Of a stretch of DNA of 64,000 nucleotides, positions 8,197 to 52,120 are shown piece after piece. A model generated the notes under the pieces. That model was not told where the DNA came from. It did not search any database and saw only the letters and a list, made by a program, of their open reading frames with translations. Position 1 is the first letter of the stretch; each line of letters opens with the position of its first letter. A program made the translations under genes and the position numbers. The stretch lies in assembly GCA_052174015.1 (NCBI GenBank), contig JBQMXM010000004.1, positions 10-64,009 on the forward strand. The letters are read 5' to 3'. The DNA is from Clostridium sp. Its GTDB lineage: Bacteria > Bacillota > Clostridia > TANB77 > CAG-508.

Positions 8197-9561
8197 TTAA
8201 TCTTTTATCTTCCATATACCTTCACTTTGTTTTTCAAGCATTTTTCCATCTAAGTATACTACAGGTCTTAAAAATTGGGCACTCGTTGAAAAACTCACAA
8301 GAGGACGATGACTAACGAGAGTATCACCCCAGACAGAACTAGAACGCACATAACGAACATTAAATTCTGGATCACTCATATTAACAAAAATACAAGGAGA
8401 AGCAAGAAAATATGAATTATCTTTGAATATATAATTCTTTAACTTGGTCTTGTTTTCTTTTACATCTATATCTGGTACTAATTCTTCACTGTATCCTGAA
8501 TTAGAAGTTATAGAATAAAATTCATTATCAAATTTTTTTATATCTTTACCAGTTCCATATTCGACATAATAACCATTTATTGTTGGATATCTTTCTTCTC
8601 TACTTTTTACACCAGGTTTATAAAATATATCCAATAATTTCTTTTCTGCATCCGTAAAGTCTGTATATGCTTCACCTTTCATTATCTTAACAATGTCTTC
8701 CATTGTCATACTTCTTGCACCAGACCCTATTAATATTCTTGTTTGTGCTTCACCGGGCACTTGATAATTTCCTATTTGATAGGTCGTAACAACTTGTTTA
8801 GCACCTTTCCCATATCCATATATACTACATGCTTTATGCAACTCTTCTTCTGCATATAACCAACCTATACCACCTTTTAATGTAAATTTGTTTGCTTCTT
8901 CTCCTCCTGTTACTTCTTTCACTGGTTCTTTTGACATTACCTTTATTTGATTATTATGAATTGATATTACAACCCATTCTTTAGCAGTTTGGTCTATTGT
9001 TACTGTTTGTGTACCATATCCATTACCACTTGTTTTTGCAGTTCCTTTTTGTGAAGTATATGTCAGTTTAGATGTATCTGTAACACCTTTTGTTGGGTTA
9101 TAAATTATTGTATCTCCTACCTTTAAATCCTTTGGTATTGTTGGTGGTGGAGTCGGTGGAGTTGGTGGTGTTGATGGTGGTTGGTACTTAAACCAATCAT
9201 CATATTGTGCTTTAGTTATATTTGTTTTTTGATTATTATAGTATAATATATTGTTTTTAAACTCAAATGTTCCACCAACTTTTTGTTCAAACTCTGTAGC
9301 ATTTGGAGGAGTATTATCTTGTGTATTTAAATCACTTGATAATTTTTTACCATCTAAATAGTGTTCTTTTTCTTCTCTTAACTGTTCTGTTATTGTTGCA
9401 ACTTTTGTATTTTTAGTTAAGTCTATAAATTGATTATTAACCACTAATACTGTTATTATTGTTGCAAGTATCATTAATATCACTATTGTTAAAACTAATG
9501 ATATTAATGTTATTGCATTTCTATTATTTTTTTGTTTTATTATATATTCTTTTGTAATCAT
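8197..9561 (-). CDS. Secreted/surface protein, paralog 1 of a three-member family (prepilin-leader-like N-terminus, conserved core domain, WKIKD C-terminus)
   Basis: N-terminal basic leader then a 25-aa hydrophobic segment (NAITLISLVLTIVILMILA). PT-rich linker (PPSTPPTPPTPPPT). Core GDTIIYNPTKGV...SKLTYTSQKGTAKTSGNGYG...NNQIKVMSKEP...GGIGWLYAEEELHKACSIYGYGKG...SGARSMTMEDIVKIMKGE...TDFTD and C-terminal FLRPVVYLDGKMLEK...WKIKD, shared with ORFs at 56208 and 57800. Hairpin terminator at 8149-8178. Confidence 0.6.
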   Translation of the reverse strand: MITKEYIIKQKNNRNAITLISLVLTIVILMILATIITVLVVNNQFIDLTKNTKVATITEQLREEKEHYLDGKKLSSDLNTQDNTPPNATEFEQKVGGTFEFKNNILYYNNQKTNITKAQYDDWFKYQPPSTPPTPPTPPPTIPKDLKVGDTIIYNPTKGVTDTSKLTYTSQKGTAKTSGNGYGTQTVTIDQTAKEWVVISIHNNQIKVMSKEPVKEVTGGEEANKFTLKGGIGWLYAEEELHKACSIYGYGKGAKQVVTTYQIGNYQVPGEAQTRILIGSGARSMTMEDIVKIMKGEAYTDFTDAEKKLLDIFYKPGVKSREERYPTINGYYVEYGTGKDIKKFDNEFYSITSNSGYSEELVPDIDVKENKTKLKNYIFKDNSYFLASPCIFVNMSDPEFNVRYVRSSSVWGDTLVSHRPLVSFSTSAQFLRPVVYLDGKMLEKQSEGIWKIKD

Positions 9562-16135: not shown

Positions 16136-16975
16136 TTATCTTTTGTTATTTTTATCTTTATTTATTTTATTTTGTTTTCCTTTTCCTTTTTCATTACTAT
16201 TATGACCATTATTAATAATAGTATCTTTTACATTATTATATGTATCTTTTAATATATTCTTGTACATAATTTCAGATTCTTTTGGTGCTATATATCCTGT
16301 AATACCAATAACTAATGGTGCTATATCATCAAGTCCTTTTAAATCTTCTATTTCTATATCATAATTATTCAACCCTTTTGTTTTTACTGATTGAAAAATT
16401 AAATTAACCCTTTTATATATCCTATATTTTTTGTATTCTTTTAAATCTTTTAAATCTTCATACTTTAATGTTTTAATTCTTAAAAATGGAAATACTTTTT
16501 TAAGTACTACTTTGTTTTCATAAAAATATACTCTTAATGTTTCTCTTTTTTGTTTTAAATATATATGTTTTAAATATATCATAAGCCCATAAAGTATTAT
16601 TGCAATTGGTGAATAATATACATTTGGTAAAATTGATAATACTGCTAAAAATATTAATAATGTTATTAATACATAATCAAAATATTTAATTAAATTATCT
16701 TTTAAATAATTATATTTAAATCTAAATTGTATATATGTTAGTTTAGTTTCTGAATCTATTTTTTTCTCTATAATAACTTCATCATTAGATACTTCATCTA
16801 ATTGACTTTGTTTGACATTTTTTAGCAATTCATTTTCTATATTTTTTTCCCTATATTCTTTTAAATCTTTAAAACATACATGGCATATATTTCCCTTTTT
16901 TTGTAATATTTTACCACATATTTTACATCTATATTCTTTTTCTGTTTTTATCTTTTGTTTTTCTACTTTTTTCAT
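16136..16975 (-). CDS. Zinc-ribbon membrane protein, possibly with a bacterial PH-like domain
   Basis: N-terminal CKICG...CHVCF zinc ribbon, two TM helices, then a soluble domain with a basic lysine-rich tail. Confidence 0.4.
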   Translation of the reverse strand: MKKVEKQKIKTEKEYRCKICGKILQKKGNICHVCFKDLKEYREKNIENELLKNVKQSQLDEVSNDEVIIEKKIDSETKLTYIQFRFKYNYLKDNLIKYFDYVLITLLIFLAVLSILPNVYYSPIAIILYGLMIYLKHIYLKQKRETLRVYFYENKVVLKKVFPFLRIKTLKYEDLKDLKEYKKYRIYKRVNLIFQSVKTKGLNNYDIEIEDLKGLDDIAPLVIGITGYIAPKESEIMYKNILKDTYNNVKDTIINNGHNSNEKGKGKQNKINKDKNNKR

Positions 16976-17109
16976 ATTTTAAACATCCTCACAGTATTCC
17001 ATTATTATATTTTTAAGTATATCATAAATAAATATAAAAAAATATATTAAAAGTTAAATTGTTAAAATATATTTAAAATAAAATATATTTAAAATTTTAC
17101 AATAAAAAA

Positions 17110-17130
17110 GAAGGCAATATAATTACCTTC
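17110..17130 (-). terminator. Rho-independent terminator of ORF 17148-18164
   Basis: GAAGGCAATATAATTACCTTC hairpin followed by a T-run on the minus strand. Confidence 0.7.
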
Positions 17131-17147
17131 TTTTTTTATTAACATTT

Positions 17148-18164
17148 CTAGCTTTCTACATTTATACTAGCAATTTTTACATTGCTAATATAAGTATAAG
17201 AATCAAATAATTGCTCAAAGTGCATCAAACTATGTATTTTTTTAATTTCTTCCAAAATACTAGTTCCCCGAATAAGAACTTCTATTTCAGAACTATTATT
17301 ATATGGTAATTCCATCTCATGATTTCCTACCATACTTTTAAATACACTAATTGGCATAATTATTTCTGAATTACCTATTTCACTTTTATCTGTTCCTGCT
17401 TCTTCAAGTACATAATTATAATTTATTTTTACCTTGTCTTTCATTTTAGAGTTTTCTAACATATATTCTTCTAATAATTCTAAGCTCCAATCTACATTAG
17501 ATATTCGATTGAACAAATAAATATTTCTATCATATTTTTCTTGAGTTTCTGTATTATATTCATATTCTATTAAATATGAAGATAACATATACAGTAAATA
17601 TTCTTTTGTAGGGGATGGATTCCTTATTTCTAGAAGTTGCCTAGATAATTCTAAATTTTCCAAATTGAATTTTGGATAATAAATTATATTTGATATAGTT
17701 AAAATCTCAAAATAATTAATTTTGTCTTTTTTAAATATGTCTTTTAATATTTTTAAAATATCATTAATAACACATCTAAAAGTTACACTATTATACATGT
17801 TTTTTATATCTAAATTGAGCAACTGAACTTTTTCTTCATTATCAAAGATTTCTAAAATAAGATCCATAGGAATATAGATATCCTTAAATTTTTTACCTTT
17901 ACATTTTTCAACATTAAAAGCAACTTTTACACAAAATAAATTGTTTCTAAAGATATAATCAATAAATTCATTCAAATACTGCTCAGAAGTTTTTCTATTC
18001 CATTCATAAATGTTTATGTCTGCAAATAGTCTACGAGTATTATTATACAAGTTTTGTGTTTTTCTGTTCCAATAAATTGCTAAATCATTTTCAAACTCAA
18101 GCAATTCTTTGGCAATATTAAATTTTGCGATTTCTCTTGCTACATGTCCTAATTTTTTGTTCAT
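17148..18164 (-). CDS. Hypothetical protein, member A1 of a three-paralog cassette family (WNRKT...Y repeats)
   Basis: Repeated W-N/S-K-T/D-x4-Y-L/F-N-E-F/L motif (IYWNRKTQNLY / YEWNRKTSEQYLNEF), shared with ORFs 24048 and 25060. Own promoter, 5'UTR hairpin and terminator. Confidence 0.5.
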   Translation of the reverse strand: MNKKLGHVAREIAKFNIAKELLEFENDLAIYWNRKTQNLYNNTRRLFADINIYEWNRKTSEQYLNEFIDYIFRNNLFCVKVAFNVEKCKGKKFKDIYIPMDLILEIFDNEEKVQLLNLDIKNMYNSVTFRCVINDILKILKDIFKKDKINYFEILTISNIIYYPKFNLENLELSRQLLEIRNPSPTKEYLLYMLSSYLIEYEYNTETQEKYDRNIYLFNRISNVDWSLELLEEYMLENSKMKDKVKINYNYVLEEAGTDKSEIGNSEIIMPISVFKSMVGNHEMELPYNNSSEIEVLIRGTSILEEIKKIHSLMHFEQLFDSYTYISNVKIASINVES

Positions 18165-18180
18165 TTTTTTCTCCTGTTTG

Positions 18181-18211
18181 CAATACTGAGTTGTGCCGCC
18201 ACAACCTAAGC
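18181..18211 (-). promoter_or_regulatory. Conserved 5'UTR hairpin element (GTTGTG-CCGC-CACAAC), copy 1
   Basis: 31-nt block caatactgagttgtgccgccacaacctaagc. GC-rich 6-bp stem, 4-nt loop, 15-45 nt upstream of the AGGAG RBS. Near-identical block at 25551-25581. Confidence 0.6.
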
Positions 18212-18243
18212 AAACATATAATATATTTATTTGGTATATAATA

Positions 18244-18272
18244 ATTATAACTCTTTTTCTGTATTATGTCAA
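18244..18272 (-). promoter_or_regulatory. Sigma-A-type promoter of ORF 17148-18164
   Basis: Minus strand TTGACA-N17-TATAAT (TTGACAtaatacagaaaaagagtTATAAT). Confidence 0.65.
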
Positions 18273-18396
18273 CTTTAGTAAAGCTATAAAAAATATAGAA
18301 TATAGTCTTATAATAAACTGTATTCTACATTTTTTATTTTATATTTTATATTTATATTTATTTTTATCTTATTTTTATCTTTATATAATTATACTT

Positions 18397-23798: not shown

Positions 23799-23991
23799 AT
23801 TACCTCGCATCACATTAATAAATTATACATAAAATTATATAATTATTTATTCTAATTTACAACATAGATTACATTAAGGTTATAATTTAATTTTTAATGC
23901 AAATTATTACAAAAAAATACAATAAATATATAATAAATATACAAATAAATATTAAAACAATAGATTAAAATAATATATTAAAAATAAAAAA

Positions 23992-24012
23992 GCAAGCAAT
24001 AATATTGCTTGC
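23992..24012 (-). terminator. Rho-independent terminator of ORF 24048-24878
   Basis: GCAAGCAATAATATTGCTTGC hairpin plus T-run on the minus strand. The same hairpin sequence recurs at 25010-25033. Confidence 0.7.
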
Positions 24013-24047
24013 CTAATTAATTAAATATTTAATAATTCAAATAATTT

Positions 24048-24878
24048 TTAAGATTTATCTAGAATTTTTAAATTTAAAAACGCTATAATATTCTCTATTA
24101 AGCTTTTATCTAGTATATTAAATACATTATTTACTGAATATTTCTGTAAATATTTAATGTTATTCATGTTAATATACTTGATAGAATCTGAAGAAGTATT
24201 TTCAATATATTTTATATTTTCCTGTGCTTCTTGATATGTATTTAAACTCCAAATTTTACCTGAAACATCATTAAATATATATTTTAATTTTTTATACTTT
24301 TCTTCATCTTTAACAGACCATGAAACTAACTGTTTAGCACATTCTAAAGTTACTAATTCTTCTTGCAACATTGTTATTAATATATTACGTACATAATCAT
24401 TTTCATATTTCTTTTTTATTATATCAGTAAAAAATGAAATCTCTAAAATTTCTACTCCATTCCATTTAGACTTATTTTCATTATTAATGATTATTTCTGA
24501 ATCATATATATTTTTTTCTAAATCTCTTTTGAATTTTGTAAAATTCTCAGTATTTACAGTATAACCCAAACTCTTTTTTAAATATTCATAACGAATTATT
24601 AATCTTTTATCCATAAATTCCATATAACCTTCAGGTTTTTTAAAATAGAACCGATATAATATATTTAAAAAATGATTCTTTCTTTTCATTAATTTTCTAA
24701 AATATAAAGAAACATCTTTACTCCATTCTTCATCAAAATATTGATTAAATGTTTTGATGTTCTTTTCATAATTCTTTTCTGCATTTTTAGAAAATGAATA
24801 TATATCATCTTCATAATCAATCAATTCATATGCTAACATATATATAGCTAACTTCTCAGTCAAATTTTTCCCGTTCAT
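24048..24878 (-). CDS. Hypothetical protein, member A2 of the three-paralog cassette family
   Basis: ELIDYEDD...DEEWSKDVSLYFRKL and a second internal copy LVSWSVKDEEKYKKL. Parallel motifs in ORFs 17148 and 25060. Confidence 0.5.
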   Translation of the reverse strand: MNGKNLTEKLAIYMLAYELIDYEDDIYSFSKNAEKNYEKNIKTFNQYFDEEWSKDVSLYFRKLMKRKNHFLNILYRFYFKKPEGYMEFMDKRLIIRYEYLKKSLGYTVNTENFTKFKRDLEKNIYDSEIIINNENKSKWNGVEILEISFFTDIIKKKYENDYVRNILITMLQEELVTLECAKQLVSWSVKDEEKYKKLKYIFNDVSGKIWSLNTYQEAQENIKYIENTSSDSIKYINMNNIKYLQKYSVNNVFNILDKSLIENIIAFLNLKILDKS

Positions 24879-24909
24879 TTTTCCTCCTATCAGAAAACAA
24901 TATTAATTA

Positions 24910-24921
24910 GTATCCGCATAC
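24910..24921 (-). promoter_or_regulatory. 5'UTR hairpin with GCGG loop (shorter-stem variant of the 18181/25551 element)
   Basis: gtatccgcatac (RNA GUAU-GCGG-AUAC) about 30 nt upstream of the TAGGAGGA RBS of ORF 24048-24878. Confidence 0.4.
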
Positions 24922-24968
24922 CATTGTTTACTTTAATATATATTTATAGAAATTTTATTTATATAATT

Positions 24969-24997
24969 ACTATACTACTTTTCATATATTATGTCAA
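24969..24997 (-). promoter_or_regulatory. Sigma-A-type promoter of ORF 24048-24878
   Basis: Minus strand TTGACAtaatatatgaaaagtagTATAGT (17-nt spacer). Starts with the same TTGACATAATA as the other two family promoters. Confidence 0.55.
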
Positions 24998-25009
24998 TCT
25001 TTTAAAAAA

Positions 25010-25033
25010 GGCAAGCAATAATATTGCTTACCT
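25010..25033 (-). terminator. Rho-independent terminator of ORF 25060-25572
   Basis: GGCAAGCAATAATATTGCTTACC hairpin plus T-run on the minus strand. Confidence 0.7.
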
Positions 25034-25059
25034 TAACAAAAATAAAAGATAGTTTAGCT

Positions 25060-25572
25060 TTAATTTTCTCTCCTTATATTAGAAATAAATACAATATTTG
25101 TAATTATTATATTTTCTAATTTATCATCTGGATCAACTTTCATAATTAAGGCTCCATCAAAATTTGATTTTATTAAGAGTTTTTTTAGCTTTGGAATATA
25201 TTCTGCCTTTATAGTATATCCTAGTGTTTCTTCTATATACTTAGCAGGGAGTAATACACTTTTATTTTCAAACTCTAATTCTCCATTTGGTTTTTCTCCC
25301 AAAATGCTACAATTTATCTTTAATAAGTTCTTCTTTTCCTTCATTAATTCATTAAAATATTGATATTCATCTTTGTTCCAAGTTTTTTTAGAATATTCTC
25401 TAAATTTTTTAACTTTTTCTCTGTACCTTTTCTCTTCTTGTTGTGAAAAATTTCCCTTAATATCTTCATACATAATCAACTCTTCAGCTATAATATATAT
25501 AATTAAAGCTTGTTTTATCTGATTTATTTTCATAATTTTTCTCCAACTAACAATACTAAGTTGTGCCTCCAC
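25060..25572 (-). CDS. Hypothetical protein, member A3 of the three-paralog cassette family
   Basis: 170 aa; EELIMYED...KTWNKDEYQYFNELM...LGYTIKAEY aligns with ORFs 24048 and 17148. Confidence 0.5.
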   Translation of the reverse strand: MEAQLSIVSWRKIMKINQIKQALIIYIIAEELIMYEDIKGNFSQQEEKRYREKVKKFREYSKKTWNKDEYQYFNELMKEKKNLLKINCSILGEKPNGELEFENKSVLLPAKYIEETLGYTIKAEYIPKLKKLLIKSNFDGALIMKVDPDDKLENIIITNIVFISNIRREN

Positions 25573-25581
25573 AACCTAAGC
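25551..25581 (-). promoter_or_regulatory. Conserved 5'UTR hairpin element (GTTGTG-CCTC-CACAAC), copy 2
   Basis: caatactaagttgtgcctccacaacctaagc. Differs from copy 1 only in the loop and one flank base. Lies 20-50 nt upstream of the GGAGA RBS. Confidence 0.6.
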
Positions 25582-25612
25582 TAGCTTAACATCATATTAT
25601 ACTTTAATATAT

Positions 25613-25642
25613 ACTATTATATTAGTTTCAATATTATGTCAA
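25613..25642 (-). promoter_or_regulatory. Putative sigma-A-type promoter of ORF 25060-25572
   Basis: Minus strand TTGACAtaatattgaaactaaTATAAT (15-nt spacer; alternative -10 TAATAG at 17-18 nt). Confidence 0.45.
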
Positions 25643-25782
25643 CATAACATTTAAATGACAAAAAGATATAATGTAGAAAACACAAACAAAAAACAAAACT
25701 ATACCATTAGATAATATATTGTTTTATATTATTAATAGTATAGTTAATTATATTTATATATTTAAATAGTTATATATATTTT

Positions 25783-28700
25783 TTATTCATCATAGAAATT
25801 ATTTTTTTTCATCTTATATAATTGGTTCATTTCTATTTGCATTTTTTGTTGTTCTTCAGAATTTACTGTATTTAATATATATCCATAATCATCTAAATTA
25901 AAGAATGGTTTTCTTTCTTGATTATAGTATGCATCTATTGTTCTTGAAAATTCTTCTGTCTGTGTATAATTTTGTGGTTGTAATTGTGGCTTTATATTAT
26001 TTTGTTTAGGATAGTTTTGATATTGTTCTGACATATTTGATATTAATTGTTGTACACTATTTGAATTTTGAAGATTATCTATATTTTGTTGCATATTTGT
26101 ACTTATTTCTTCTAAATTAATATTTGGTACACTTTTTTGTCTATAATATTTTTCTAAATCGTCTTCTTCCTCTTCTAATTTTTTCCTATATTTTTCTTCT
26201 TGTTCTTGTCTAATTTGCATTTCTTGTAATAGTTGTCTTTTAAGCTCATTTTCTTTTTGTAATGCAATTTTTTTAGCTTCTTGTTCTATTCTTTTAGCTA
26301 TCTCTTGTTCTTGCCTAATTTTATCAATCTCTATTTGTGCTATTCTTTCTGCTTCTGCTTTGATTTTTAAATTAATAGCTTCTTGTTCTTCTTGTTTTTT
26401 TCTTGCTTCAGCTTCTAATTTTTGTCTTAGTAATTCTTCTTGTTCCTTTTGTTTTAATCTTTCTTCTTCTAACTTTTGTCTTAACTTTTCTTCTTCTTCA
26501 AGTCTTTTTGCTTCTTCATTAGCTATTTTAATTCTTAATTCTTCTTCTTTTGCAATTCTTAATTTTTCAAGTTCTGCATTTTTTCTTCTTAATTCTTCTA
26601 ATTCTTTTTCTTGTCTTCTTTGCCTAATTTTAGAAAGTTTTTCTTCTTCTTCTCTTTTCTTTCTTAATTCTTCATCTATTTTTCTTCTATGAATTGTTTC
26701 TGTATATTCTTTTAATGAATTACTTAAATTATCTAAATCAAATTCAAAATTTTGTTCTTCTTGTTCTTTTACATTATCTAAAATATTATTAAACTTGTTT
26801 ATTTTATTTATTTTCTTTTCTTCTTGTATTTGCTTTTCTTTTAATTCTTCTACTAATACTTTTATTTTTTCTTGTTCTACTTCTTCGGTTTCTTCTGTTT
26901 CTTCTATTTCTAAAGCTTCTTCTTTAATTTCTATATTATCTTCATTAATGTCTTTTATTTTTGTATTTTCTGGATTTTCTATATTATCTACATTTTCTAT
27001 ACTTAAACCATATATATTATTTAGATTATCTGAATCATTTTTATTATCTGCTTCTGATACTTCTTCGTCTATATTATCATCACTAAGCCCTAGTTCTTCT
27101 AAATCTTTTTTGTATTCTTCATCTTTGTATTCATATTTTGGTTCTACTACTTCATTTTGTAATTCTTGATTTTTTTCTTCTATTTTTTCTTTTGGTTCTA
27201 TTTCTTCTGTTTCTATTATTATTTTATGCTTATATTTTTCATTTACTTCTATCTCTTTTTCTTGTCTAATTACACTTCTACATACTTTTTCTGCTTCTTC
27301 TTCTGATACTTTTTTGTTTCCAAGTATTGATAATACTTGTATATATATGTAGTCTTTTTTATCTAATGTTTGTAAGTCTTTTTCTAATGATGTATTATAT
27401 AGTATTTTTTTAAGATTTTCTTTTATCTTAATTAAACTATAATTATAGTCTGCTTTTATATATATTAATTCTTTTTTTACTATACCATATTCTAAAATTT
27501 CTTCTAATATATTGTTATATATTTCTTTTGTTTCATCATCAAAAATCCCATATTCTTTTTCTAAATATTTTGAATATTCACTACTTATAATTACTTGTGC
27601 TAAATATTCTTTAGGTACTTTTGACATATCACTTTCATTTGTATTATATTTTTCAAAAAACTTATCTTGTGTTAATTTTAATATTTGTACTGTAATTTCT
27701 TCATTATTGTATTTTAAGAATTTTAATCTTTTTTCTAATGTTTCTGGACTAAGTCCAAGTACTGATATATTTTGAATTACAGAGTCTAACATATCATATT
27801 CTATTAGTAAATCTAAGTTTGTCTGTATATTTGAAACAGGCTTTATAAATAGAGACAATGAATTTTTAAGTTCATTTATTAACCCTACACTTTCAAGAAA
27901 TGTATAAATTTGTTCCATATTATCTGCTTTTCCTTTAGCAAATATTATACCTGGTATTTCTACTTCTGGATTATCTAATAGATTTTTGCTCTTTAAAAAT
28001 TCTTTTACTTCATCTATTGATTCTACATTTCCTGTTGTTAATATTGTACTACTTTTTTCTAATATTTCTTTACCAATTCCATTATCTTGTTGTTCTTCTT
28101 TTTCTAATTTGTCTAAAATTTGTGTGATATTTTCTGGATTTCCTTTAATTAGTATAAATGCATTATTTAATATATTTCTTGATAATCCTCTATCATCTAT
28201 TTCTTGTACTATTTCTTCTATATTTTTAGCATTTCCATTTAAATATACATTAACATTTTCTAATATTTCTTTATTTAAACCATATTTTACAAATACTGTT
28301 TGAATTTTTAATATATTATTAGGTTCTTGTATTGTTAGTATTTGTGGATTTCTTTCTATATAATTACTATCTTCTATTTTTTCAAATATATCTATTACAT
28401 TAATCACATTATTTGGTGTATTTTTTAATACATATTGTGGATATTTATATATATATTCTTTATCTATTTTTTCTTTTTCTACAGCTTCTATATATTCAAT
28501 GATTGTATTTAAATCTATACTAATTACTAATTTAAAATTATCTTCTAATACGTTTTTGAATATATCTTCAAATTCTTCTAAGTATCTTATTTTTTTGATT
28601 AATTTACTTAATTCTATTGTATCATACATTAATACTTCTGAATTTTTTGATATTTCTTCTTTTGATATATTTAATTGTTTTAATATTGCAATTATATTTT

Positions 28701-29463
28701 CTATATCTTTTGTCTCATTTTCATATACTATTTCAGGGCTTTTTTGTAATATATTTTTTTCTATACCATTTCTATCAAACATATTTAATATTGCTTGCAC
28801 CCTTATTTTTGTAGTATATGCAAGTATTTGTGGATTTTTCTTAATAATTTGTAATCCTAGTTTTTCTTTTGGATTAGTATATAGTAATAATAATTCTTTT
28901 ACTACATTTGCTGTATTTAAATAGAATACTTTTGGACATTTTTTAAGTATCACTTTTTCAATCTCGTATTCTTCTAATACTTTAAATATTTTAGAGATTT
29001 CTGTTGCATCTCCATATGCTAAAATATCCCCATTATTTTTAAAATATTCTAATCCTAATCCTTTTTCTTTAAAAATTTTTAGTATTTTTAATATATTTTC
29101 ATCTTTCCCAACACCTATTACTTCTGGAAATTTTTCTAATATCTGTAATGTTATATCTTTGTTTTTAACTAATGCAGATATTTTTTGTATCCTTACCCTA
29201 TTTGTTCTTTCAAAAATTTCAGGATTTTTTTCTAATAATGATATTGGTAATTCTGATTCTTTAAATTGCTCTATTACATTTTTAACTTTACTAGACTTTA
29301 TATTTAATACTTGTGGATAATTACTAATTAAACTAATTGTTAGCTTTTTTTGTTTAATTATTTCAATTATATCTAAAGCATTTTGTCTATCTTCTAATTC
29401 AATCCCTAACTTTATAATTATTTTATCTAATATATTTTCATATTGATTGACTTTTTTAGTCAT
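25783..29463 (-). CDS. Giant cytoplasmic repeat protein: about 15 mTERF-like Pro-containing helical repeats, E/R/K-rich predicted single helix, Q/N-rich C-terminus
   Basis: No signal peptide. About 33-aa repeats with a conserved Pro (…KNPQILAYTTKIRVQAILNMF…, …KFPEVIGVGKDENILKILKIF…). About 160 aa of EEEKLRQKLEEERLKQKEQEELLRQKLEAEARKK-type sequence, then NLQNSNSVQQ...QLQPQNYTQ. Antisense plus-strand ORFs here are low-complexity artefacts. Confidence 0.6.
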   Translation of the reverse strand: MTKKVNQYENILDKIIIKLGIELEDRQNALDIIEIIKQKKLTISLISNYPQVLNIKSSKVKNVIEQFKESELPISLLEKNPEIFERTNRVRIQKISALVKNKDITLQILEKFPEVIGVGKDENILKILKIFKEKGLGLEYFKNNGDILAYGDATEISKIFKVLEEYEIEKVILKKCPKVFYLNTANVVKELLLLYTNPKEKLGLQIIKKNPQILAYTTKIRVQAILNMFDRNGIEKNILQKSPEIVYENETKDIENIIAILKQLNISKEEISKNSEVLMYDTIELSKLIKKIRYLEEFEDIFKNVLEDNFKLVISIDLNTIIEYIEAVEKEKIDKEYIYKYPQYVLKNTPNNVINVIDIFEKIEDSNYIERNPQILTIQEPNNILKIQTVFVKYGLNKEILENVNVYLNGNAKNIEEIVQEIDDRGLSRNILNNAFILIKGNPENITQILDKLEKEEQQDNGIGKEILEKSSTILTTGNVESIDEVKEFLKSKNLLDNPEVEIPGIIFAKGKADNMEQIYTFLESVGLINELKNSLSLFIKPVSNIQTNLDLLIEYDMLDSVIQNISVLGLSPETLEKRLKFLKYNNEEITVQILKLTQDKFFEKYNTNESDMSKVPKEYLAQVIISSEYSKYLEKEYGIFDDETKEIYNNILEEILEYGIVKKELIYIKADYNYSLIKIKENLKKILYNTSLEKDLQTLDKKDYIYIQVLSILGNKKVSEEEAEKVCRSVIRQEKEIEVNEKYKHKIIIETEEIEPKEKIEEKNQELQNEVVEPKYEYKDEEYKKDLEELGLSDDNIDEEVSEADNKNDSDNLNNIYGLSIENVDNIENPENTKIKDINEDNIEIKEEALEIEETEETEEVEQEKIKVLVEELKEKQIQEEKKINKINKFNNILDNVKEQEEQNFEFDLDNLSNSLKEYTETIHRRKIDEELRKKREEEEKLSKIRQRRQEKELEELRRKNAELEKLRIAKEEELRIKIANEEAKRLEEEEKLRQKLEEERLKQKEQEELLRQKLEAEARKKQEEQEAINLKIKAEAERIAQIEIDKIRQEQEIAKRIEQEAKKIALQKENELKRQLLQEMQIRQEQEEKYRKKLEEEEDDLEKYYRQKSVPNINLEEISTNMQQNIDNLQNSNSVQQLISNMSEQYQNYPKQNNIKPQLQPQNYTQTEEFSRTIDAYYNQERKPFFNLDDYGYILNTVNSEEQQKMQIEMNQLYKMKKNNFYDE

Positions 29464-31744: not shown

Positions 31745-33118
31745 CTATTTTAACTTATTTAAAATATATTCTTCTATTTCACTTATTTTAATTGTTTCTT
31801 GTTGCATACTATCTCTATCTCTAATAGTTACTTCATTATTTTTTAAAGTATTGTCGTCTACTGTAACTACATATGGAGTACCATTTATATCTTGTCTCCT
31901 ATATCTTTTTCCAATACTACCACTTTCGTCATAATCAACTGTAACTATTTTTGCAAGTTCTAAATATAGTTTTTTAGCATATTCTGAATGCTTATTTTTT
32001 AATAATGGTAATACTGCCAACTTATATGGTGCAATTTTAGGATTGAATTTCATAACTATTCTAGTAGTTCCGTCTTCTAATTCTTCTTCATTATATGCTT
32101 CATAAAGTAATGCTAAAGTTGCTCTATCTGCTCCAACTGTTGATTCAACAATATATGGTATGAATTTTTCTTTAGTTTCTTCATCTAAATATTCCATACT
32201 TTTACCAGAATATTCTTGATGTTGTGTTAAATCATAATCTGTTCTATCATGTGTACCATTTATTTCTCCATATCCAAATGGGAATAAATATTCTATATCA
32301 CATGCTGCTTTTGCATAAAAAACTAATTTGGCATGGTCCATAAATCTTAATTTTTCAGTAGGTAAACCAATGTCATTAAAAAACTTTAATGCATAATCTT
32401 TATAAAATTCATAAAGTTTTAAATCTTCTCCCGGTTTACAAAATGTTTGAAATTCCATTTGTTCAAATTCTATTGTTCTAAATGTTAAATTTCCAGGTGT
32501 AACTTCATTTCTAAAAGCTTTACCAATTTGCCCTATACTAAATGGTAATTTTGCTCTTGAACTTCTTAAAACATTTAAATAATTTACATATTCTCCTTGT
32601 GCATTTTCTGGACGTAAATATATAATATTTTTATTTTCTTCAAGAGTACCTCTATATGTTTCAAACATTTGACTAAATTTTCTAACTTTAGTAAAGTCTT
32701 GTCCTCCACAATGTGGACACTTTCCATTATTCTCTTTTATATATTCTTCCATTTCATCATAACTAAGTGCTTCCCCATTTACTGTACCATTAGATAATTT
32801 ATCTATATATTTATCTACTCTTATTCTTGCCTTACATTTCTTACAATCCATTTTAGGGTCATAAAATGATGCGACATGTCCTGATGCTTTCCAAACTCTA
32901 GGATGCATTAATATATTTGCATCTATTTCATATGAATTCATTTGTTCTTGAATAAATCTTTTTCTCCAAGCGTCTTTTAAATTATTTTTTATTCTACTTC
33001 CTAAAGGTCCATAATCCCATGTATTTGCTAATCCTCCATAAATATCTGACCCTGGATAAATATATCCATATTGTTTACAAAAAATTGCCATTTGTTCTAT
33101 ATTTAATTTCTTTTCCAT
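31745..33118 (-). CDS. glyQS: Glycine--tRNA ligase (alpha2 dimeric class II type), copy 1
   Basis: [25 protein letters not shown]-terminus, motif 2 FRNEVTPGNLTFRTIEFEQME, motif 3 VGADRATLALL. Confidence 0.93.
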   Translation of the reverse strand: MEKKLNIEQMAIFCKQYGYIYPGSDIYGGLANTWDYGPLGSRIKNNLKDAWRKRFIQEQMNSYEIDANILMHPRVWKASGHVASFYDPKMDCKKCKARIRVDKYIDKLSNGTVNGEALSYDEMEEYIKENNGKCPHCGGQDFTKVRKFSQMFETYRGTLEENKNIIYLRPENAQGEYVNYLNVLRSSRAKLPFSIGQIGKAFRNEVTPGNLTFRTIEFEQMEFQTFCKPGEDLKLYEFYKDYALKFFNDIGLPTEKLRFMDHAKLVFYAKAACDIEYLFPFGYGEINGTHDRTDYDLTQHQEYSGKSMEYLDEETKEKFIPYIVESTVGADRATLALLYEAYNEEELEDGTTRIVMKFNPKIAPYKLAVLPLLKNKHSEYAKKLYLELAKIVTVDYDESGSIGKRYRRQDINGTPYVVTVDDNTLKNNEVTIRDRDSMQQETIKISEIEEYILNKLK

Positions 33119-33367: not shown

Positions 33368-33382
33368 TTGTAGAAAACACAA
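33368..33382. repeat. Dispersed palindromic intergenic motif TTGTAGAAAA(C/T)ACAA (copies also at 25671-25685, 39215-39229, 41050-41064)
   Basis: Inverted repeat TTGTA-N5-TACAA (perfect at 39215 and 41050, CACAA variant at 33368 and 25671). Always intergenic, 85-130 nt downstream of a minus-strand stop. Two copies flank metG. Confidence 0.5.
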
Positions 33383-33404
33383 ACATATTTGACAGAAATA
33401 TATA

Positions 33405-33470: not shown

Positions 33471-34847
33471 TTATTGTTTTAAATTATTATTTAAATATTC
33501 TACTAAATTTTTAATTTCTACTCTTTCTTGCTCCATAGTATCTCTATCTCTTACAGTTACTTTTCCATCTTTTTCAGTATCAAAATCTACAGTTACACAA
33601 TATACTGTACCTATTTCATCTTGTCTTCTATATCTTTTTCCAATACTTCCTGTTTCATCATATGTAGTCATAAATTCTTTTTGTAATAAAGTATATACAT
33701 CATCTGCTTGTTCACTTAATTGTTTTGAAAGTGGTAATACAGCAACTTTGTATGGTGCAAGTCTTTTATCTAATTTTAATACGACTCTTGTATCTTCTCC
33801 AACTTTTTCTTCATTATATGCATCTGCTAAAAATGCTAAAAATACTCTGTCACATCCAACTGATGGCTCTATAACATGTGGTATAAATTCTGTACCATCT
33901 AATCTTTTAACTGCCATTGATACTTTTGAATAATTTTGGTGTTGTGTTAAATCATAGTTTGTTCTATTTGCAATTCCCCATAATTCTCCCCAACCAAATG
34001 GAAATAGGTATTCTATATCAATAGTACCTGCACTATAATGTGATAATTCTTCTTTTTCATGTGGTCTTTTTCTAATATTTTTTTCTGTCATACCATGATT
34101 TAATAACCAATCAAAACAATAGTTATGCCAATATTCAAACCAATCTTCTTTAGTTTCTGGATCAAAGAAAAATTCTAATTCCATTTGTTCAAATTCTCTA
34201 GTTCTAAAAATAAAGTTACCTGGTGTTATCTCATTTCTAAAACTTTTACCTATTTGTGCAATACCAAATGGTAATTTTCTTCTTGTTGTTCTTAAAGCAT
34301 TTTTAAAGTTTGTAAAAATACCTTGTGCTGTTTCTGGTCTTAAATATACTTCTGATTTTTTATCTTCTGTTACTCCTTGAAATGTTTTAAACATTAAATT
34401 AAATTTACGTATATTTGTATAGTTTAAAGCTCCACATTTTGGACACACTATATTATTTTCTACTATATAATTATACATTTTTTCATCTGACCAACCATCT
34501 GCAATTCCATTAATTCCATTTTGAAACATCCATTCTTCAATAAGTTTGTCTGCTCTATGTCTTGTTTTACATTCTTTACAATCCATTAATGGGTCTGTAA
34601 AATTTGCTAAATGTCCTGACGCTTCCCATGTTTTAGGATTCATTAATATTGCTGCATCTAAGCCTACATTATATTTACTTTCTTGTACAAACGCTTTTTT
34701 CCATTCAGCTTTTACATTATTTTTTAATTCTAATCCTAGAGGTCCATAATCCCATGTATTTGCAAGCCCACCATAAATATCTGAGCCTGGATATACAAAT
34801 CCTTTTTCTTTTGCAAATATCATTAATTTTTCCATATTTTCTATCAT
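33471..34847 (-). CDS. glyQS: Glycine--tRNA ligase (alpha2 dimeric class II type), copy 2 (divergent paralog)
   Basis: [24 protein letters not shown], motif 2 [21 protein letters not shown], motif 3 [11 protein letters not shown]. Full-length, roughly 55-60% identical to copy 1 by eye. Confidence 0.93.
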
Positions 34848-38996: not shown

Positions 38997-39272
38997 TTAT
39001 TATTAATTATCATCTTCTATTCTTTTGTAATACATTTGTTAAAGTTTTAAGTTAATCTAAAATTTAAAAAATTAATTAAGAAATTAAATATGTTATTAAA
39101 ACAAGTACATAAAAAAATTAAAAATATATTGTAGATTTAACTATTATTTACAATATACATTATACCATTTTTACAACTAATTGTAAATTTTAAAATGTGT
39201 ATTTTTCTCTATATTTGTAGAAAATACAAACAAGAATTTATATATTAGAATATTAAAATATTAAATATAAAA

Positions 39273-40922: not shown

Positions 40923-41135
40923 ACTTTCTCCTTTATATATTTAAATTATATAGTAGATTTAATGTTAAATAACAAATACTAATTATAATTTATATTATCA
41001 TAATTTTTTTCTGAACACAACTTTACAACTTAAAATAATATACTTTTAATTGTAGAAAATACAAATAATAATTTATAGATTAAAATATACTTTTAGTTTT
41101 ATTAATTTATACATTTATACATATATATATTTAAT

Positions 41136-50143: not shown

Positions 50144-52120
50144 CTATTTTAAAGTTATTATACATACTCTATCTCTACCTGCTAAATCTTGAATAGTTTC
50201 CACATTCAGATTATTTTTATTACATATATTTTCTATCTCTTTTCTTTGTTTGTACCCTATCTCAAGTAATATATATTTTGACATATCTTTATCTATATCA
50301 TCTTTGTTTACATCTGTATTTTTTAAATACCTATTACCTTTTTCTAAAATTTCTATATAATATTTTAATCCATCTTTTCCACCAAATAGTGCAATATGTG
50401 GTTCTTTTAGAGTATCTAATTCTAAGATTTCATCTTCTCTAATATATGGTGGATTTGCAAATATTATATCAAAATAGTTATAGTATTCTTTTGACAGATT
50501 TTTAAACATATCTGAACATATTAAATGTATATTATTATCCAAACTATATTTAGATATATTTTTTTTAGCTATTTCTAATGCTTTTTTTGATATATCTAAT
50601 GCATATATATTAACATATTCTAATATTTTATCACCATATTTTTTTTCTAATTCTTTTAATACACATATACTAAGTGCTGCACTTCCTGTACATAATTCTA
50701 GTATCTCTATTTTTTCTGTTGTATTTTTATCTATATTTTTTTGAATCTTTTCACATATTTTTTTAATTGTACTATGTATTAATATTTCACTATCATATCT
50801 CGGAATAAGTACATTTTCATCTACATAAAATGAATATCCATATATATATGCTGTGTTTGTAATGTATGCAAGTGGAATATTTGATGCAAATTTCAATAAC
50901 ATTTTTTTAATTTTTTGATAATCTTCTTCTGATATAATTATCTTTTCTGCTACATTTTTTAAATATTCTGTTTTTGAAATACCAGTTACATTTTGTATAA
51001 TTTCCCAAATAGCTTGATATATATATTCTGTGTCTTCCATATCTTCTATATCTTCTATATCTTCTGTATTAAAATTATTAGTTATATTATGCATTTTCGC
51101 TATTGTAAATTTATATAATTCTTCTACTATTTCAAGAATTGTTTTTTGTAATCTTTCAAGTATAATATATTTTCTTTTAACTTTCATATTATTTATACTA
51201 CAAACTCCATATAGTTTTGATGATATATATATTAAATACTCTCCATCTATAAAGTCTGGTATATCTTTTCCATTTAATTTTTGTATATCTTTTTTTAAAA
51301 ATTCTAAATTTGTATCAAGTCCTTTTAAATATGCATCTTTTCTAAATTCTGGTAAATATATTTTAGGCATTTTAGTATTTTCTAATATTTCTGTTTCTGT
51401 AAATATACATCTTTTATTTTCTTGATTTAATACATCTTGATTTAGTTCTTCTAGCTTTATACTATTTTCTTTACTCATATTTGATACAGCTATTCTTTCT
51501 AAATCTGTCATTACAGCTACTGTACCTAATTTTTCTGCAATATCTGAAATTACTTGCCTAATATATGTTCCTGAACTTACATGTAATTCAAATTCTAACT
51601 CATACTTATCTACAAACTTAATATTACATATATCATATATATAGATTTCTTTTTGTTTTTGCTTTGCTTTTTCTTTAGCTAATGAGATATCTTTTCTAGC
51701 TATTTCATATAGTTTTTGCCCATCAATTTTTCTAGATGAAAATATTGGAGTTTTTTGTAATTGTTTTCCTTTCATATTTTCAATTACATTAAATATTTCT
51801 TTTTTAATTTCTGATATATTTTTAACTTTTTTAAAAAAATCTTTATCTTCAAAAATCACTTTCCCTTCTAAATCTAAAGTATCTGTAGTTACTCCTAATT
51901 TCATTCTAGTAATATATTTTTTGTCTTTTTCTATTAAATAGTTTGCAAGTTTGCAACTTTGTCCTAGCAATATTGGTAACACTCCTCGTGCTTTAGGGTC
52001 TAATGTTCCAATATGTCCAGCTTTTGCATTTAATTTTTTAGAAACTATATTAACTGCGTCTCTTGAAGTAACTCCTTCTTCCTTATATATTACTATTATT
52101 CCTGAATTAATCTTTTTCAC
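50144..52120 (-). CDS. truB: Fusion protein: tRNA pseudouridine(55) synthase TruB (N-terminal, about 330 aa) plus HemK/PrmC-family N5-glutamine methyltransferase (C-terminal, about 300 aa)
   Basis: N-terminal AGHIGTLDPKARGVLPILLGQ TruB catalytic motif and PUA-like region. Acidic linker DIEDIEDMEDTEY. C-terminal PLAYITNTAYIYGYSFYVDENVLIPRYDSE, SAM motif ILELCTGSAALS and FANPPYI (NPPY). One uninterrupted 658-aa ORF. Confidence 0.8.
   Translation of the reverse strand: MKKINSGIIVIYKEEGVTSRDAVNIVSKKLNAKAGHIGTLDPKARGVLPILLGQSCKLANYLIEKDKKYITRMKLGVTTDTLDLEGKVIFEDKDFFKKVKNISEIKKEIFNVIENMKGKQLQKTPIFSSRKIDGQKLYEIARKDISLAKEKAKQKQKEIYIYDICNIKFVDKYELEFELHVSSGTYIRQVISDIAEKLGTVAVMTDLERIAVSNMSKENSIKLEELNQDVLNQENKRCIFTETEILENTKMPKIYLPEFRKDAYLKGLDTNLEFLKKDIQKLNGKDIPDFIDGEYLIYISSKLYGVCSINNMKVKRKYIILERLQKTILEIVEELYKFTIAKMHNITNNFNTEDIEDIEDMEDTEYIYQAIWEIIQNVTGISKTEYLKNVAEKIIISEEDYQKIKKMLLKFASNIPLAYITNTAYIYGYSFYVDENVLIPRYDSEILIHSTIKKICEKIQKNIDKNTTEKIEILELCTGSAALSICVLKELEKKYGDKILEYVNIYALDISKKALEIAKKNISKYSLDNNIHLICSDMFKNLSKEYYNYFDIIFANPPYIREDEILELDTLKEPHIALFGGKDGLKYYIEILEKGNRYLKNTDVNKDDIDKDMSKYILLEIGYKQRKEIENICNKNNLNVETIQDLAGRDRVCIITLK

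Follow-up and report, generated by a model that had tools for sequence, protein, structure and literature searches.

Small hairpins beside the SD sequence are well known as translational operators, for example the MS2/PP7 coat-protein operator, the T4 RegA targets, the L20 and S15 leaders and the ThrRS operator. In Firmicutes, mRNAs are stabilised by 5' stem-loops and by strong ribosome-binding sites, as described for the aprE leader, ermC and the cryIIIA STAB-SD. Paralog families whose upstream modules are homogenised by recombination are known from Borrelia, with the 'upstream homology box' of erp and mlp, and from Mycoplasma, with the 5' regions of its variable-protein genes. Here, we describe gene cassettes from an uncultured low-GC Clostridium, which we regard with high confidence as the expression units of a lineage-restricted, fast-evolving orphan protein family. 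With equally high confidence, we assign four parts to such a cassette: a sigma-A promoter close to consensus, a 5'UTR of ~75 nt that is AU-rich and harbors a 47-nt two-helix RNA, an ORF and a conserved intrinsic terminator.

The window, i.e. the whole stretch of 64 kb that was analysed, contains three paralogous genes of diverged sequence on the minus strand, c1 (17148-18164), c2 (24048-24878) and c3 (25060-25533), each with its own TTGACATAATA promoter, GC-containing leader hairpin and own terminator. A sequence-only reading of this DNA had proposed three self-contained promoter-leader-ORF-terminator units with promoter spacers of 15-17 nt and a TATAAT or TATAGT hexamer, a block common to two of the copies and a third hairpin with a GCGG loop, and all of these features were recovered where it had placed them: the spacers are 17 nt (c1, TATAAT), 17 nt (c2, TATAGT) and 15 nt (c3, TATAAT), the common block GGTTGTGGNGGCACAAC occurs twice in the window (18190-18206 and 25560-25576; expected by chance 0), and the third hairpin is GGUAU-GCGG-AUACU at 24909-24922. 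Some of its details had to be corrected. The paralogy was confirmed, but the family has at least four members in the genome instead of three, since the source MAG ('Clostridium sp.' at NCBI) carries a fourth paralog on a different contig. The terminators are present and homologous, but the stems of c2 and c3, which had been called identical, are one base apart. The third ORF, given as 25060-25572, starts at the ATG at 25533, which has a GGAG 8 nt upstream and is in line with orthologues that are likewise called at 157 aa; with this start instead of the GTG at 25572, the c3 hairpin lies in the 5'UTR and outside the ORF. The features of the three cassettes are as follows.

c1 promoter, 18244-18272, minus strand: -35 TTGACA (18272-18267), 17-nt spacer, -10 TATAAT (18249-18244); 12/12 consensus match
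c1 leader RNA element, 18171-18217, minus strand: covariance-model score 75.7 bits; MFE fold of the same architecture; covariation
c1 leader P1, 18216-18210 with 18181-18175, minus strand: outer stem
c1 leader P2, 18206-18200 with 18195-18189, minus strand: inner stem, GCGG loop at 18199-18196
c1 leader 3' internal loop, minus strand: CAGUAUU; SD GGAG at 18174-18171
c1 CDS, 17148-18164, minus strand: 338 aa, long (two-domain) type, acidic (pI 5.35); NCBI MGP1608548.1, hypothetical protein
c1 intrinsic terminator, 17104-17131, minus strand: GAAGGUAAUUAUAUUGCCUUC with a U-tract after it; homologous to those of the other cassettes
c3 promoter, 25616-25642, minus strand: TTGACA (25642-25637), 15-nt spacer, TATAAT (25621-25616)
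c3 leader RNA element, 25541-25587, minus strand: covariance-model score 73.9 bits; fold z-score -2.56
c3 leader stems, minus strand: outer AGCUAGC/GUUAGUU (G-U pairs present), inner GGUUGUG/CACAACU
c3 leader loop, 25569-25566, minus strand: GAGG; SD GGAG at 25544-25541
c3 CDS, 25060-25533, minus strand: 157 aa, single-domain short type, pI 8.9; NCBI MGP1608555.1
c3 terminator, 25003-25034, minus strand: GGUAAGCAAUA-U-UAUUGCUUGCC and U-tract; also forms the upstream copy of the direct repeat found on either side of the c2 cassette
c2 promoter, 24969-24997, minus strand: TTGACA, 17-nt spacer, TATAGT; 11/12 consensus match
c2 leader element (degenerate relative), 24895-24929, minus strand: outer pairing of AAACAAU (24929-24923) with AUUGUUU (24901-24895); 7 nt upstream of the SD-containing stretch
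c2 inner hairpin, 24922-24909, minus strand: loop at 24917-24914
c2 CDS, 24048-24878, minus strand: 276 aa; NCBI MGP1608554.1
c2 terminator, 23980-24014, minus strand: AGGCAAGCAAUAUUAUUGCUUGCUU and U-tract; downstream copy of the terminator repeat

The exact sequence TTGACATAATA occurs three times in the 64 kb, each time at one of the promoters (18262-18272, 24987-24997 and 25632-25642). Only the exact 11-mer is specific, because with one mismatch allowed the count equals chance. The c1 promoter module is also present in the related loci L002, L003, L007 and L001, and the c3 spacer, 15 nt in the window, has 17 nt in strains L004 and L008 due to a TA insertion or deletion. The cassette terminators consist of about 10-11 bp plus at least 6 U. 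That of c1 shares the loop AATTATATT with the other cassettes and differs from them in its stem arms, where the changes compensate each other.

The family ORFs encode one or two copies of a ~160-aa module that comprises three helices and a small beta-sheet. BLASTP relates c2 and c3 at E=1e-25 (35% identity over the N-terminal domain) and gives only marginal matches of c1 to c2 or c3; in a profile comparison the short and the long type match at E=1.8e-5. The internal repeat that had been suspected in the ORFs is borne out by a match of the N to the C halves of the long type at E=3e-9 with hhalign; the duplication became visible only in this way, since the N-domain profile matched none of the C halves in hmmsearch. 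Paralog proteins have diverged to about 23% identity, and the family comprises 7 representatives among 1.84 billion proteins. The first reading had recognised no family, and Pfam, NCBIfam, PADLOC and PHROGs contained none at E<0.01 for c1, c2, c3 and P0006, the best hit of a PDB sequence-profile search had an E of 0.28, and Foldseek against PDB and BFVD returned nothing at E<=0.001. Thus, this is an orphan family, with a predicted fold that has no match in the libraries searched, known RNA-binding folds included. The proteins look cytosolic, with neither a signal peptide nor a lipobox. Long-type members have a pI of 5.2-6.3, and such acidity is uncommon among RNA binders; only c2 and c3 are mildly basic. 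The dN/dS ratio within the family is 0.18-1.25 (0.42 for c1 against L002, about 1.2 for c2) compared to 0.08-0.29 for most neighbours.

The leader hairpin that had been noted earlier turned out to form just one part, the inner helix, of a larger element with two helices. This 47-nt RNA consists of a 7-bp outer stem P1 and a 7-bp inner stem P2 with a G(C/A)GG tetraloop, as well as a 3-nt 5' bulge and a 3' internal loop containing AGUAUU, and single-sequence folds gave the same two-helix architecture in four independent cases. Between the 3' arm of P1 and the SD there are 0-1 nt in c1, c3, L013 and L010 and 7 nt in c2, so that the element adjoins the ribosome-binding region as translational operators and autoregulatory leaders do. 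It starts ~18-23 nt downstream of the predicted transcription start; in c2 it begins 39 nt after the -10 hexamer.

Across five distinct leader versions, 68/68 pair cells pair and 8 of the 14 pairs have changed on both sides, counts that come from an alignment fitted to the model. The leaders compared amount to 5-6 distinct sequences, drawn from one species-level lineage or two closely related ones. In shuffle controls the observed value was reached in 0-1 of 500 cases for four of five measures and in 4/500 for the count of further pair types, and slid controls gave a covariation of 0.02-0.14 against the observed 0.63; the compensatory substitutions thus exceed the controls, as is generally expected of structured RNA. 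With only c1 and c3 as input, a covariance model recovers the diverged leader of L010 at E=1e-4. Between the window and L004 the c3 element differs at 7 positions, all of them compatible with the fold, with compensatory changes present in L004, the leaders of L010 and L013 add further compensated pairs, and L013 shows an additional G-C to U-A swap in P1. The c1 element has 0 changes in 47 nt relative to L002, where the adjacent CDS has a synonymous divergence of 0.17. In all six leader versions the sense strand has a better folding energy than the antisense strand, and this consistency, together with the G-U pairs, indicates that the conserved structure is formed by RNA. Thus, the leader is a real RNA structure that is maintained by compensatory changes and confined to one lineage. 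The hairpin is thus retained in related genomes, and the noncoding architecture is conserved across the paralogs despite their protein divergence, as had been claimed.

The unpaired bases of the leader are conserved better than its stems, which would favour recognition over a role in stability alone. Five of the six versions have the GCGG loop, c2 and L010 among them with leaders that share 59-64% identity with c1 overall, and the loop is composed entirely of G and C at a genomic GC content of 24%. The window's minus strand (64 kb) contains GCGG 7 times, two of which are the c1 and c2 hairpin loops. In a search for an RNA partner that would pair in trans with the loop, the complement CCGC was found once on the transcribed strand of the window. 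A literature search for GCGG/GNGG tetraloops led only to unrelated papers that mention a GAGG tetraloop. The c2 leader is the weak version, yet it has kept the full promoter and SD. It scores 11.9 bits in the covariance model (E=2.2), which is not significant alone, and the covariance models R1 and R2 likewise gave no significant recovery of it. We treat it as a degenerate relative because of its position, its alignment, the rarity of GCGG and the fold of the isolated element, which takes the same two-helix shape at -5.1 kcal/mol. Over the whole window Rfam 15 gave 0 matches at gathering thresholds, and a search of the leaders at E up to 10 returned only sub-threshold chance matches (U6, 20.6 of 44 bits; freshwater-2, 18.8 of 49.9 bits).

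Some further candidates were considered and set aside. Mini-ORFs that could encode a leader peptide overlap the 5' side of the element (e.g. AUG UUU GCU UAG in c1); lacking an SD and varying from copy to copy, they are probably incidental in such AT-rich sequence. The internal loop contains the AGUA strand of a K-turn or sarcin-ricin motif, with the opposite strand off consensus. For Rex and CRP-type operators, the half-site spacing of the palindrome does not fit.

Within about 150 kb (the 64-kb window and 87 kb of related loci), significant covariance-model matches are found only immediately in front of family genes, which answers the concern that the motif might occur randomly or inside coding regions. 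Neither a protein-pattern scan nor a leader-motif scan of the GTDB representatives gave a match. The leader-motif scan of JGI metagenomes gave two (L005 and L006), which lie in higher-GC DNA, one of them clearly in a coding region, and were judged to be chance; viral contigs contained one chance match, which seems to lie in a coding sequence, and no related proteins. The neighbours at every locus examined are housekeeping genes without a recombinase, as are the other large ORFs scanned in the window. Cassettes c3 and c2 follow a 1226-aa protein that has neither a toxin domain nor any other domain of Pfam, PADLOC or NCBIfam, and the genes preceding c1 and the fourth paralog are cdsA and a ROK gene, respectively. 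A co-occurrence with toxins, phage genes or the giant protein nearby had been suggested as a point to check, and no such link was found. With these neighbours, and with a promoter and a terminator for each gene, the arrangement resembles neither an integron-like or insertion-element gene cassette nor a polymorphic-toxin immunity array.

The family shows presence/absence from strain to strain as well as pseudogenes. Cassette c2 is missing from two strains, L004 and L009, in which the c3 terminator is joined directly to the sequence after the c2 terminator; to judge from these junctions, the cassette was probably gained or lost by recombination between the terminator repeats. Direct repeats flank c2, in the form of the terminator copies, as well as the L010 gene, where the repeat is a 28-nt intergenic motif; both arrangements are compatible with homologous recombination. 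In L001, the module upstream of a P0006-type gene is 94-95% identical to the c1 modules and 79% identical to the orthologous L013 module. Its greater closeness to the c1 modules shows that one promoter-leader module was swapped between paralog loci. Gene conversion from leader to leader inflates apparent conservation.

Our leading, still tentative reading is that the leader acts as an mRNA operator for a sequence-specific trans factor, possibly the family's own proteins, in the cassettes of this orphan family. The SD is predicted to be mostly unpaired (probability unpaired 0.54-0.92), so the element alone does not hide it, and any switching would need a partner. For such a factor, the exposed GCGG loop and the internal loop would serve as recognition sites, and because the element adjoins the SD, it would gate 30S binding and hence translation when bound, with knock-on effects on mRNA stability. 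That a factor binds, which one it might be and in which direction it would regulate are points that we infer, and the same applies to a control shared among the cassettes through the leader. The most economical candidate would be one or more of the family proteins, acting on their own and each other's mRNAs, because the element is found only before family genes. The acidity of the long forms and the lack of a known RNA-binding fold count against a family protein in this role. Co-duplication alone would also place the element upstream of every paralog, which counts against inferring an operator.

It might also be, though we consider this rather doubtful, that the element is a passive cis structure, whose role would be to stabilise the mRNA or to display the SD in open, AU-rich surroundings within a constitutive high-expression cassette that has no dedicated trans factor. 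The perfect or near-perfect consensus promoters would agree with such a role, as would the SD and its A-rich 8-nt spacer, which are predicted to be open beside a stable helix, and the compensatory changes, since keeping the stems is sufficient for a structural function. However, 5' stabilisers are known to be effective only a few nt from the 5' end, and the element lies further downstream of the predicted transcription start. A passive role also does not account for a GC-only, non-canonical tetraloop and an AGUAUU loop that are conserved above the stems at 24% GC.

An extension of the operator reading, which we hold to be unlikely, is that the ~160-aa module represents a new RNA-binding fold and that the paralogs form a cross-regulating network, in which gene conversion keeps the promoter-leader modules interchangeable, while the coding sequences diversify and strains gain or lose cassettes. 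Each protein would then bind the GCGG-loop hairpin on its own and on sibling mRNAs.

A transcription attenuator or small riboswitch, with transcription ending at the inner hairpin and the U-rich stretch after it unless an alternative state forms, or with a metabolite bound by the internal loop, seems quite improbable. Two helices flanking an asymmetric conserved internal loop are a common layout of small aptamers, and the leader has a conserved internal loop between its helices; the SD is predicted to be open, and no expression platform is visible. A terminator scan flags the c3 leader hairpin (25556-25579), which is followed by UAUUGUUAGU, and c3 alone passes; c1, L013 and L010 have a poor U-tract (CAGUAUUG, AAGUAUAU), and the leader hairpins are short with 5-7 bp compared to the real cassette terminators. 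P1 encloses the hairpin without competing with it, and no antiterminator fold or other alternative pairing and no sequestration of the SD are predicted. Further, Rfam offers no match even at the permissive threshold, and the downstream genes belong to an orphan, dispensable family instead of a metabolic or transport function.

It is very unlikely that the leader has no function of its own, its similarity merely reflecting recent duplication and gene conversion of promoter-leader modules with the structure hitch-hiking. The module exchange at L001 and the gain or loss of c2 through its terminator repeats would be in line with this. Conversion, however, cannot create compensatory double substitutions, and the uniformly fold-compatible differences of the c3 element between the window and L004, the compensated pairs added by L010 and L013, as well as the unchanged c1 element next to a diverged CDS in L002 all speak against it. 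Finally, the first reading had held that GTTGTG-N4-CACAAC could equally be a double-stranded DNA operator at about +30 for a dimeric repressor, which we consider highly improbable: an inverted repeat does lie downstream of a strong promoter in all copies, but instead of conserved half-sites with dyad symmetry these vary (GTTGTG, GTTATG, GTGTT, GTAT) with complementarity kept even at G-T positions that break the symmetry, the conserved centre GCGG is asymmetric, the outer helix of unrelated sequence covaries too, and the sense strand folds better in every version.

These data add two new items, a structured motif of the 5'UTR and an orphan family of proteins, and since the two are tied one-to-one, each provides a handle on the function of the other. 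The noncoding control modules stay near-identical through selection and gene conversion, while the genes diverge. If a family protein binds the hairpin, this would give a new RNA-binding module with a compact operator, a possible genetic part for low-GC Firmicutes, and if the network reading holds, the cassettes would constitute a self-contained, rapidly evolving, autoregulated 'contingency' gene family in gut or environmental Clostridium. The reach of the finding is limited to one uncultured lineage in which the genes are dispensable in some strains, with no pointer to a widely important function.

Compared with the systems described above, the element resembles translational operators in being a small stem-loop with conserved unpaired bases that sits immediately before the SD, inside the ribosome footprint, is restricted to the mRNAs of the family and is maintained by compensatory changes, its binding partner being only putative; it differs from them in lacking an Rfam match and in its candidate proteins, which are acidic in their long forms and in which neither an RNA-binding domain nor an RNA-binding fold was recognised. 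With the Firmicutes 5' stabilisers of aprE, ermC and cryIIIA it shares the low-GC Gram-positive host, the strong promoter and the leader hairpin with a strong SD, whereas its predicted distance of ~20 nt or more from the 5' end and its conserved loop sequences, which a stabiliser would not need, set it apart. Like the Borrelia and Mycoplasma families, the cassettes have diverged coding regions behind near-identical promoters and 5' regions, and they show module exchange, presence/absence among strains and pseudogenes. Unlike these families, their proteins carry no signal peptide or lipobox, the cassettes stand singly among chromosomal housekeeping genes, and no switching mechanism is evident except for the 2-nt difference in a promoter spacer. 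From the 'Cis-reg' motifs of Rfam the element differs by its absence from release 15, by its occurrence, so far, in only one species-level cluster and one close relative, and by its association with a single orphan protein family; with the orphan motifs of this class, which have no known ligand or partner, it shares a conserved structured 5'UTR, covariation and a consistent gene association.

The window has a GC content of about 24%, carries nearly all of its genes on the minus strand and is core chromosome. The genes identified in it include PolC, frr-uppS-cdsA, a P-type ATPase, LexA, Obg, two GlyRS-like genes, MetRS, ComEC, TruB and PNPase. An exact-sequence look-up matched the products of the three cassette genes c1 (17148-18164), c2 (24048-24878) and c3 (25060-25533) with MGP1608548.1, MGP1608554.1 and MGP1608555.1, each annotated as "hypothetical protein", and a fourth family member, MGP1608892.1, lies on a different contig of the same MAG. 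All features that the sequence-only reading had described at the three cassettes were found, on the minus strand. Across 64 kb the promoters of c1, c2 and c3 are the only places with an exact match to the 11-mer TTGACATAATA, three in all, and the shared block GGTTGTGGNGGCACAAC is present twice, with none expected.

Promoters of the cassette genes
c1, minus strand: TTGACA-17-TATAAT
c2, minus strand: TTGACA-17-TATAGT
c3, 25616-25642, minus strand: TTGACA-15-TATAAT in the window

The c3 spacer of 15 nt compares with 17 nt in the sister strains L004 (7823-7853) and L008, owing to a TA dinucleotide insertion/deletion in a short (TA)n run, which may change promoter strength between strains. The start of c3, formerly placed at GTG 25572, was corrected to ATG 25533, yielding 157 aa as in the orthologues, and the c3 hairpin therefore falls within the 5'UTR. 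The cassette terminators are homologous, with a common core GCAAU(A/U)(U/A)UAUUGC, whereby the outer arms of c1 covary.

In the sequence-only reading each leader carried a short hairpin. This hairpin is present, but on folding it proved to be just one part, the inner helix P2, of a more extended element, which consists of an outer helix P1 of 7 bp, a 5' bulge of 3 nt, P2 of 5-7 bp, a G(C/A)GG tetraloop and a 3' internal loop of 7-9 nt including AGUAUU, and in which P1 ends 0-1 nt before the Shine-Dalgarno sequence (SD).

Leader versions in the window and in contigs of related assemblies (L numbers)
c1, identical in L001, L002, L003, L007 and L012: P1 GUUUGC/GCAAAC, P2 GGUUGUG/CACAACU, loop GCGG
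L013 and L014: P1 GUUUUC/GAAAAC, P2 as c1 (GGUUGUG/CACAACU), loop GCGG
c3, window: P1 AGCUAGC/GUUAGUU, P2 GGUUGUG/CACAACU, loop GAGG
c3, L004, L008 and L009: P1 AGCUAGC/GCUAGCU, P2 GGUUAUG/CAUAAUU, loop GCGG
L010: P1 AACUAAC/GUUAGUU, P2 GUGUU/AACAC, loop GCGG
c2: P1 AAACAAU/AUUGUUU, P2 GGUAU/AUACU, loop GCGG

The suggested folding and covariation check showed the hairpin to be kept in related genomes with compensated pair changes. Across five distinct leader sequences, which are few and closely related and whose alignment was fitted to the model, standard pairing is found in 68 of 68 pair cells and two-sided changes in 8 of 14 pairs. For four of five measures the observed value was reached by 0-1 of 500 shuffles, and sliding the partner by 1-3 columns abolished nearly all covariation signal. 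A covariance model built from c1 and two c3 versions alone recovered the L010 leader (24.5 bits, E=1e-4), and single-sequence MFE folds independently gave the same two-helix shape. In each of the six versions, G-U pairs give the sense strand a better fold than the antisense strand (c3: -16.8 vs -5.6 kcal/mol).

No Rfam family matches the element. Instead of occurring at random or within genes, an objection raised beforehand, matches of the second, improved covariance model R2 lie only directly upstream of family genes (window plus 87 kb of related loci). With R2 the c2 leader reaches no more than 11.9 bits (E=2.2); it is called a degenerate relative on account of where it lies, how the leaders align, how the isolated element folds, and the rarity of its loop, which is among just seven GCGG occurrences on that strand across 64 kb. 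Mini-ORFs overlap the 5' side of the element on the minus strand at 18208-18219 (c1, AUG UUU GCU UAG), 25582-25596 (c3, AUG AUG UUA AGC UAG) and 24906-24923 (c2, AUG GUA UGC GGA UAC UAA); they lack an SD and are unlike between copies, and are thus probably incidental in AT-rich sequence.

At the protein level, the proposed paralogy is clear for c2 and c3 (35% identity, E=1e-25). The long type comprises c1 and the lineages of P0006/P0015 and P0026 (proteins from related loci) with a mutual identity of 34-55%, and is joined to the short type via profile comparison (E=1.8e-5). Its N and C halves match each other (E=3e-9); judged by sequence, it is a tandem duplication of one module, which explains the repeated motif seen earlier. 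AlphaFold models (pLDDT ~76) predict a module of three helices, a beta-hairpin and short helices, closed by a strand; c3 has one such module and c1 has two. The proteins are hydrophilic, signal peptides are absent on reading of the sequences, and short forms are mildly basic and long forms acidic. As the sequence-only reading had recognised no family, so Pfam, NCBIfam, PADLOC and PHROGs gave no match. Among 1.84 billion representative proteins a profile search found seven, all of this lineage, and a word-indexed search of 5.8 billion clusters six family members; within reach of the scans, GTDB representative genomes, JGI metagenomes and IMG/VR lack the family.

Family cassettes occupy at least four distinct sites, singly amid housekeeping genes.

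Cassette sites
Site 1: cdsA, c1
Site 2: giant protein, c3-c2, ATPase
Site 3: ROK, fourth paralog, Fic
Site 4: MgsA, L010 gene

None of these neighbourhoods showed a recombinase, a phage gene or a toxin domain, and the suggested co-occurrence with toxins or phage genes was not found. The giant protein (25783-29463, minus strand, 1226 aa) has no Pfam, NCBIfam or PADLOC match; in its N-terminal ~600 aa, helical repeats of ~35 aa appear to form an array, marked by a recurring K-x-P-x-[IV]-[LF] signature and resembling mTERF repeats; a long E/K-rich coiled-coil region and a Q/N-rich tail come next. Sister strains keep the protein (dN/dS 0.19). Immediately downstream of c1 lies a gene (16136-16975, minus strand; dN/dS 0.51, fast for the region) whose 279-aa product starts with a double-zinc-ribbon-like CxxC...CxxC motif in its N-terminal part and also has apparent hydrophobic segments, possibly membrane-spanning, and a Lys/Asn-rich tail. 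The fourth paralog is followed downstream by an 88-aa ORF and a 182-aa ORF with a Fic domain (L001 9220-9486 and 9668-10216; L013 7238-8234), a split kept in three assemblies; SLAIEN in the former fits the Fic-antitoxin inhibitory-helix motif S/T-x-x-x-E-G/N, and the two ORFs represent a class-II Fic that has been split or else a class-I toxin-antitoxin pair. Elsewhere on the minus strand of the window, a second orphan paralog trio (8197-9561, 56208-57626, 57800-59218; 454-472 aa; 66-87% nucleotide identity in blocks) has two members in tandem and no Pfam domain at E<=1e-5 in the two members scanned. Tandem GlyRS-like class-II aminoacyl-tRNA synthetase paralogs (31745-33118 and 33471-34847; 457 and 458 aa) contain tRNA-synt_2b plus HGTP_anticodon and share ~69-77% DNA identity. 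A 658-aa ORF (50144-52120) with a TruB pseudouridine-synthase domain (residues 32-233) and a C-terminal SAM-methyltransferase domain (~467-565) is possibly a fusion of two RNA-modification enzymes.

Contigs of six other samples belong to the window's species (94-97% nucleotide identity). Against these, dN/dS of the family genes is 0.18-1.25 overall (c1 0.42 and 0.87; c3 0.18-0.44; c2 ~1.2; fourth paralog 0.68), compared with 0.08-0.29 for housekeeping neighbours. The c2 gene is absent from two of five strains (L004, L009) and present in the window, L008 and L015, whereby the junction (L004 8435-8465; L009 8335-8363) falls exactly within the terminator repeat bracketing the cassette. The c2 cassette (24014-25003, ~1 kb), with two terminator-hairpin copies at its ends, is a presence/absence polymorphism. 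In one strain c3 has a premature stop, and the L010 gene is broken by a frameshift. From the absence of c2, these two lesions and the dN/dS values it follows that the family is dispensable and that selection on it is relaxed or diversifying.

In L001, the 125 nt that precede the P0006-type gene, the fourth paralog, share 94-95% identity with the c1 upstream modules and 79% with the orthologous L013 module, whereas at the protein level L001 and L013 share 91% identity and each has only ~36% with c1 (regions compared: L001 7867-8000, L013 5880-6000, window 18165-18297). The upstream sequences of L001 and L013 stay identical as far as ~45 nt before the -35 hexamer and from there on diverge. Given this mismatch, a c1-type promoter-leader module has replaced the resident one, or the reverse, which indicates gene conversion between dispersed paralog loci. 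Part of the noncoding identity is thus concerted evolution, which cannot account for the compensated differences among the other leader versions. At several unrelated loci a dispersed intergenic motif, ATATTTCTGTCAAATATGTTTGTGTTTTCTACA, is found behind terminators and 50-90 nt ahead of promoters; its core TTTGTRTTTTCTACA occurs four times, with ~1 expected.

Copies of ATATTTCTGTCAAATATGTTTGTGTTTTCTACA
33369-33401, minus strand: copy
25672-25686, 39216-39230 and 41051-41065, minus strand: partial copies
L010 5050-5077 and 6315-6342, L009 1-19, L012 1-27: copies in other loci

The L010 family cassette has a 28-nt copy on either side, as a direct repeat. Two short-read contigs start inside the motif, a sign that the genome may hold many copies of it; a regulator site and a REP-like repeat are both conceivable.

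The feature is real and well delimited: a cis-acting leader RNA, new and private to the lineage, is coupled to an orphan protein family that is likewise new, the function of the pair being putative. Structured 5'UTR elements on paralog families are already known as a general kind, and the distribution of this pair is very narrow. In the predicted leader ensembles the SD is mostly unpaired, so that the element by itself would not mask it. Unpaired bases are conserved above the stems and the loop is held all-G/C despite strong AT pressure, which points to recognition by a trans factor and not to a mere hairpin; since the element adjoins the SD, this factor would act on translation initiation. 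A passive structure that stabilises the mRNA or presents the SD in a high-expression cassette, a reading that these conserved bases do not favour, is rather unlikely. It is improbable that the leader is an attenuator or riboswitch, and slightly more so that it is non-functional hitch-hiking. A DNA operator, once regarded as equally conceivable, is very unlikely because the half-sites vary between versions, the invariant GCGG centre lacks symmetry, and covariation extends to the outer helix. As for the trans factor, the family's own proteins would be the most economical candidates, since the element is confined to this family; against them stand the acidity of the long forms and the absence of a recognised RNA-binding fold. 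We therefore favour autogenous or cross-paralog repression by these proteins only tentatively. Phage coat-protein operators and ribosomal-protein leaders work by autogenous repression, and it is in such repression, here proposed only, that the present element would resemble them.
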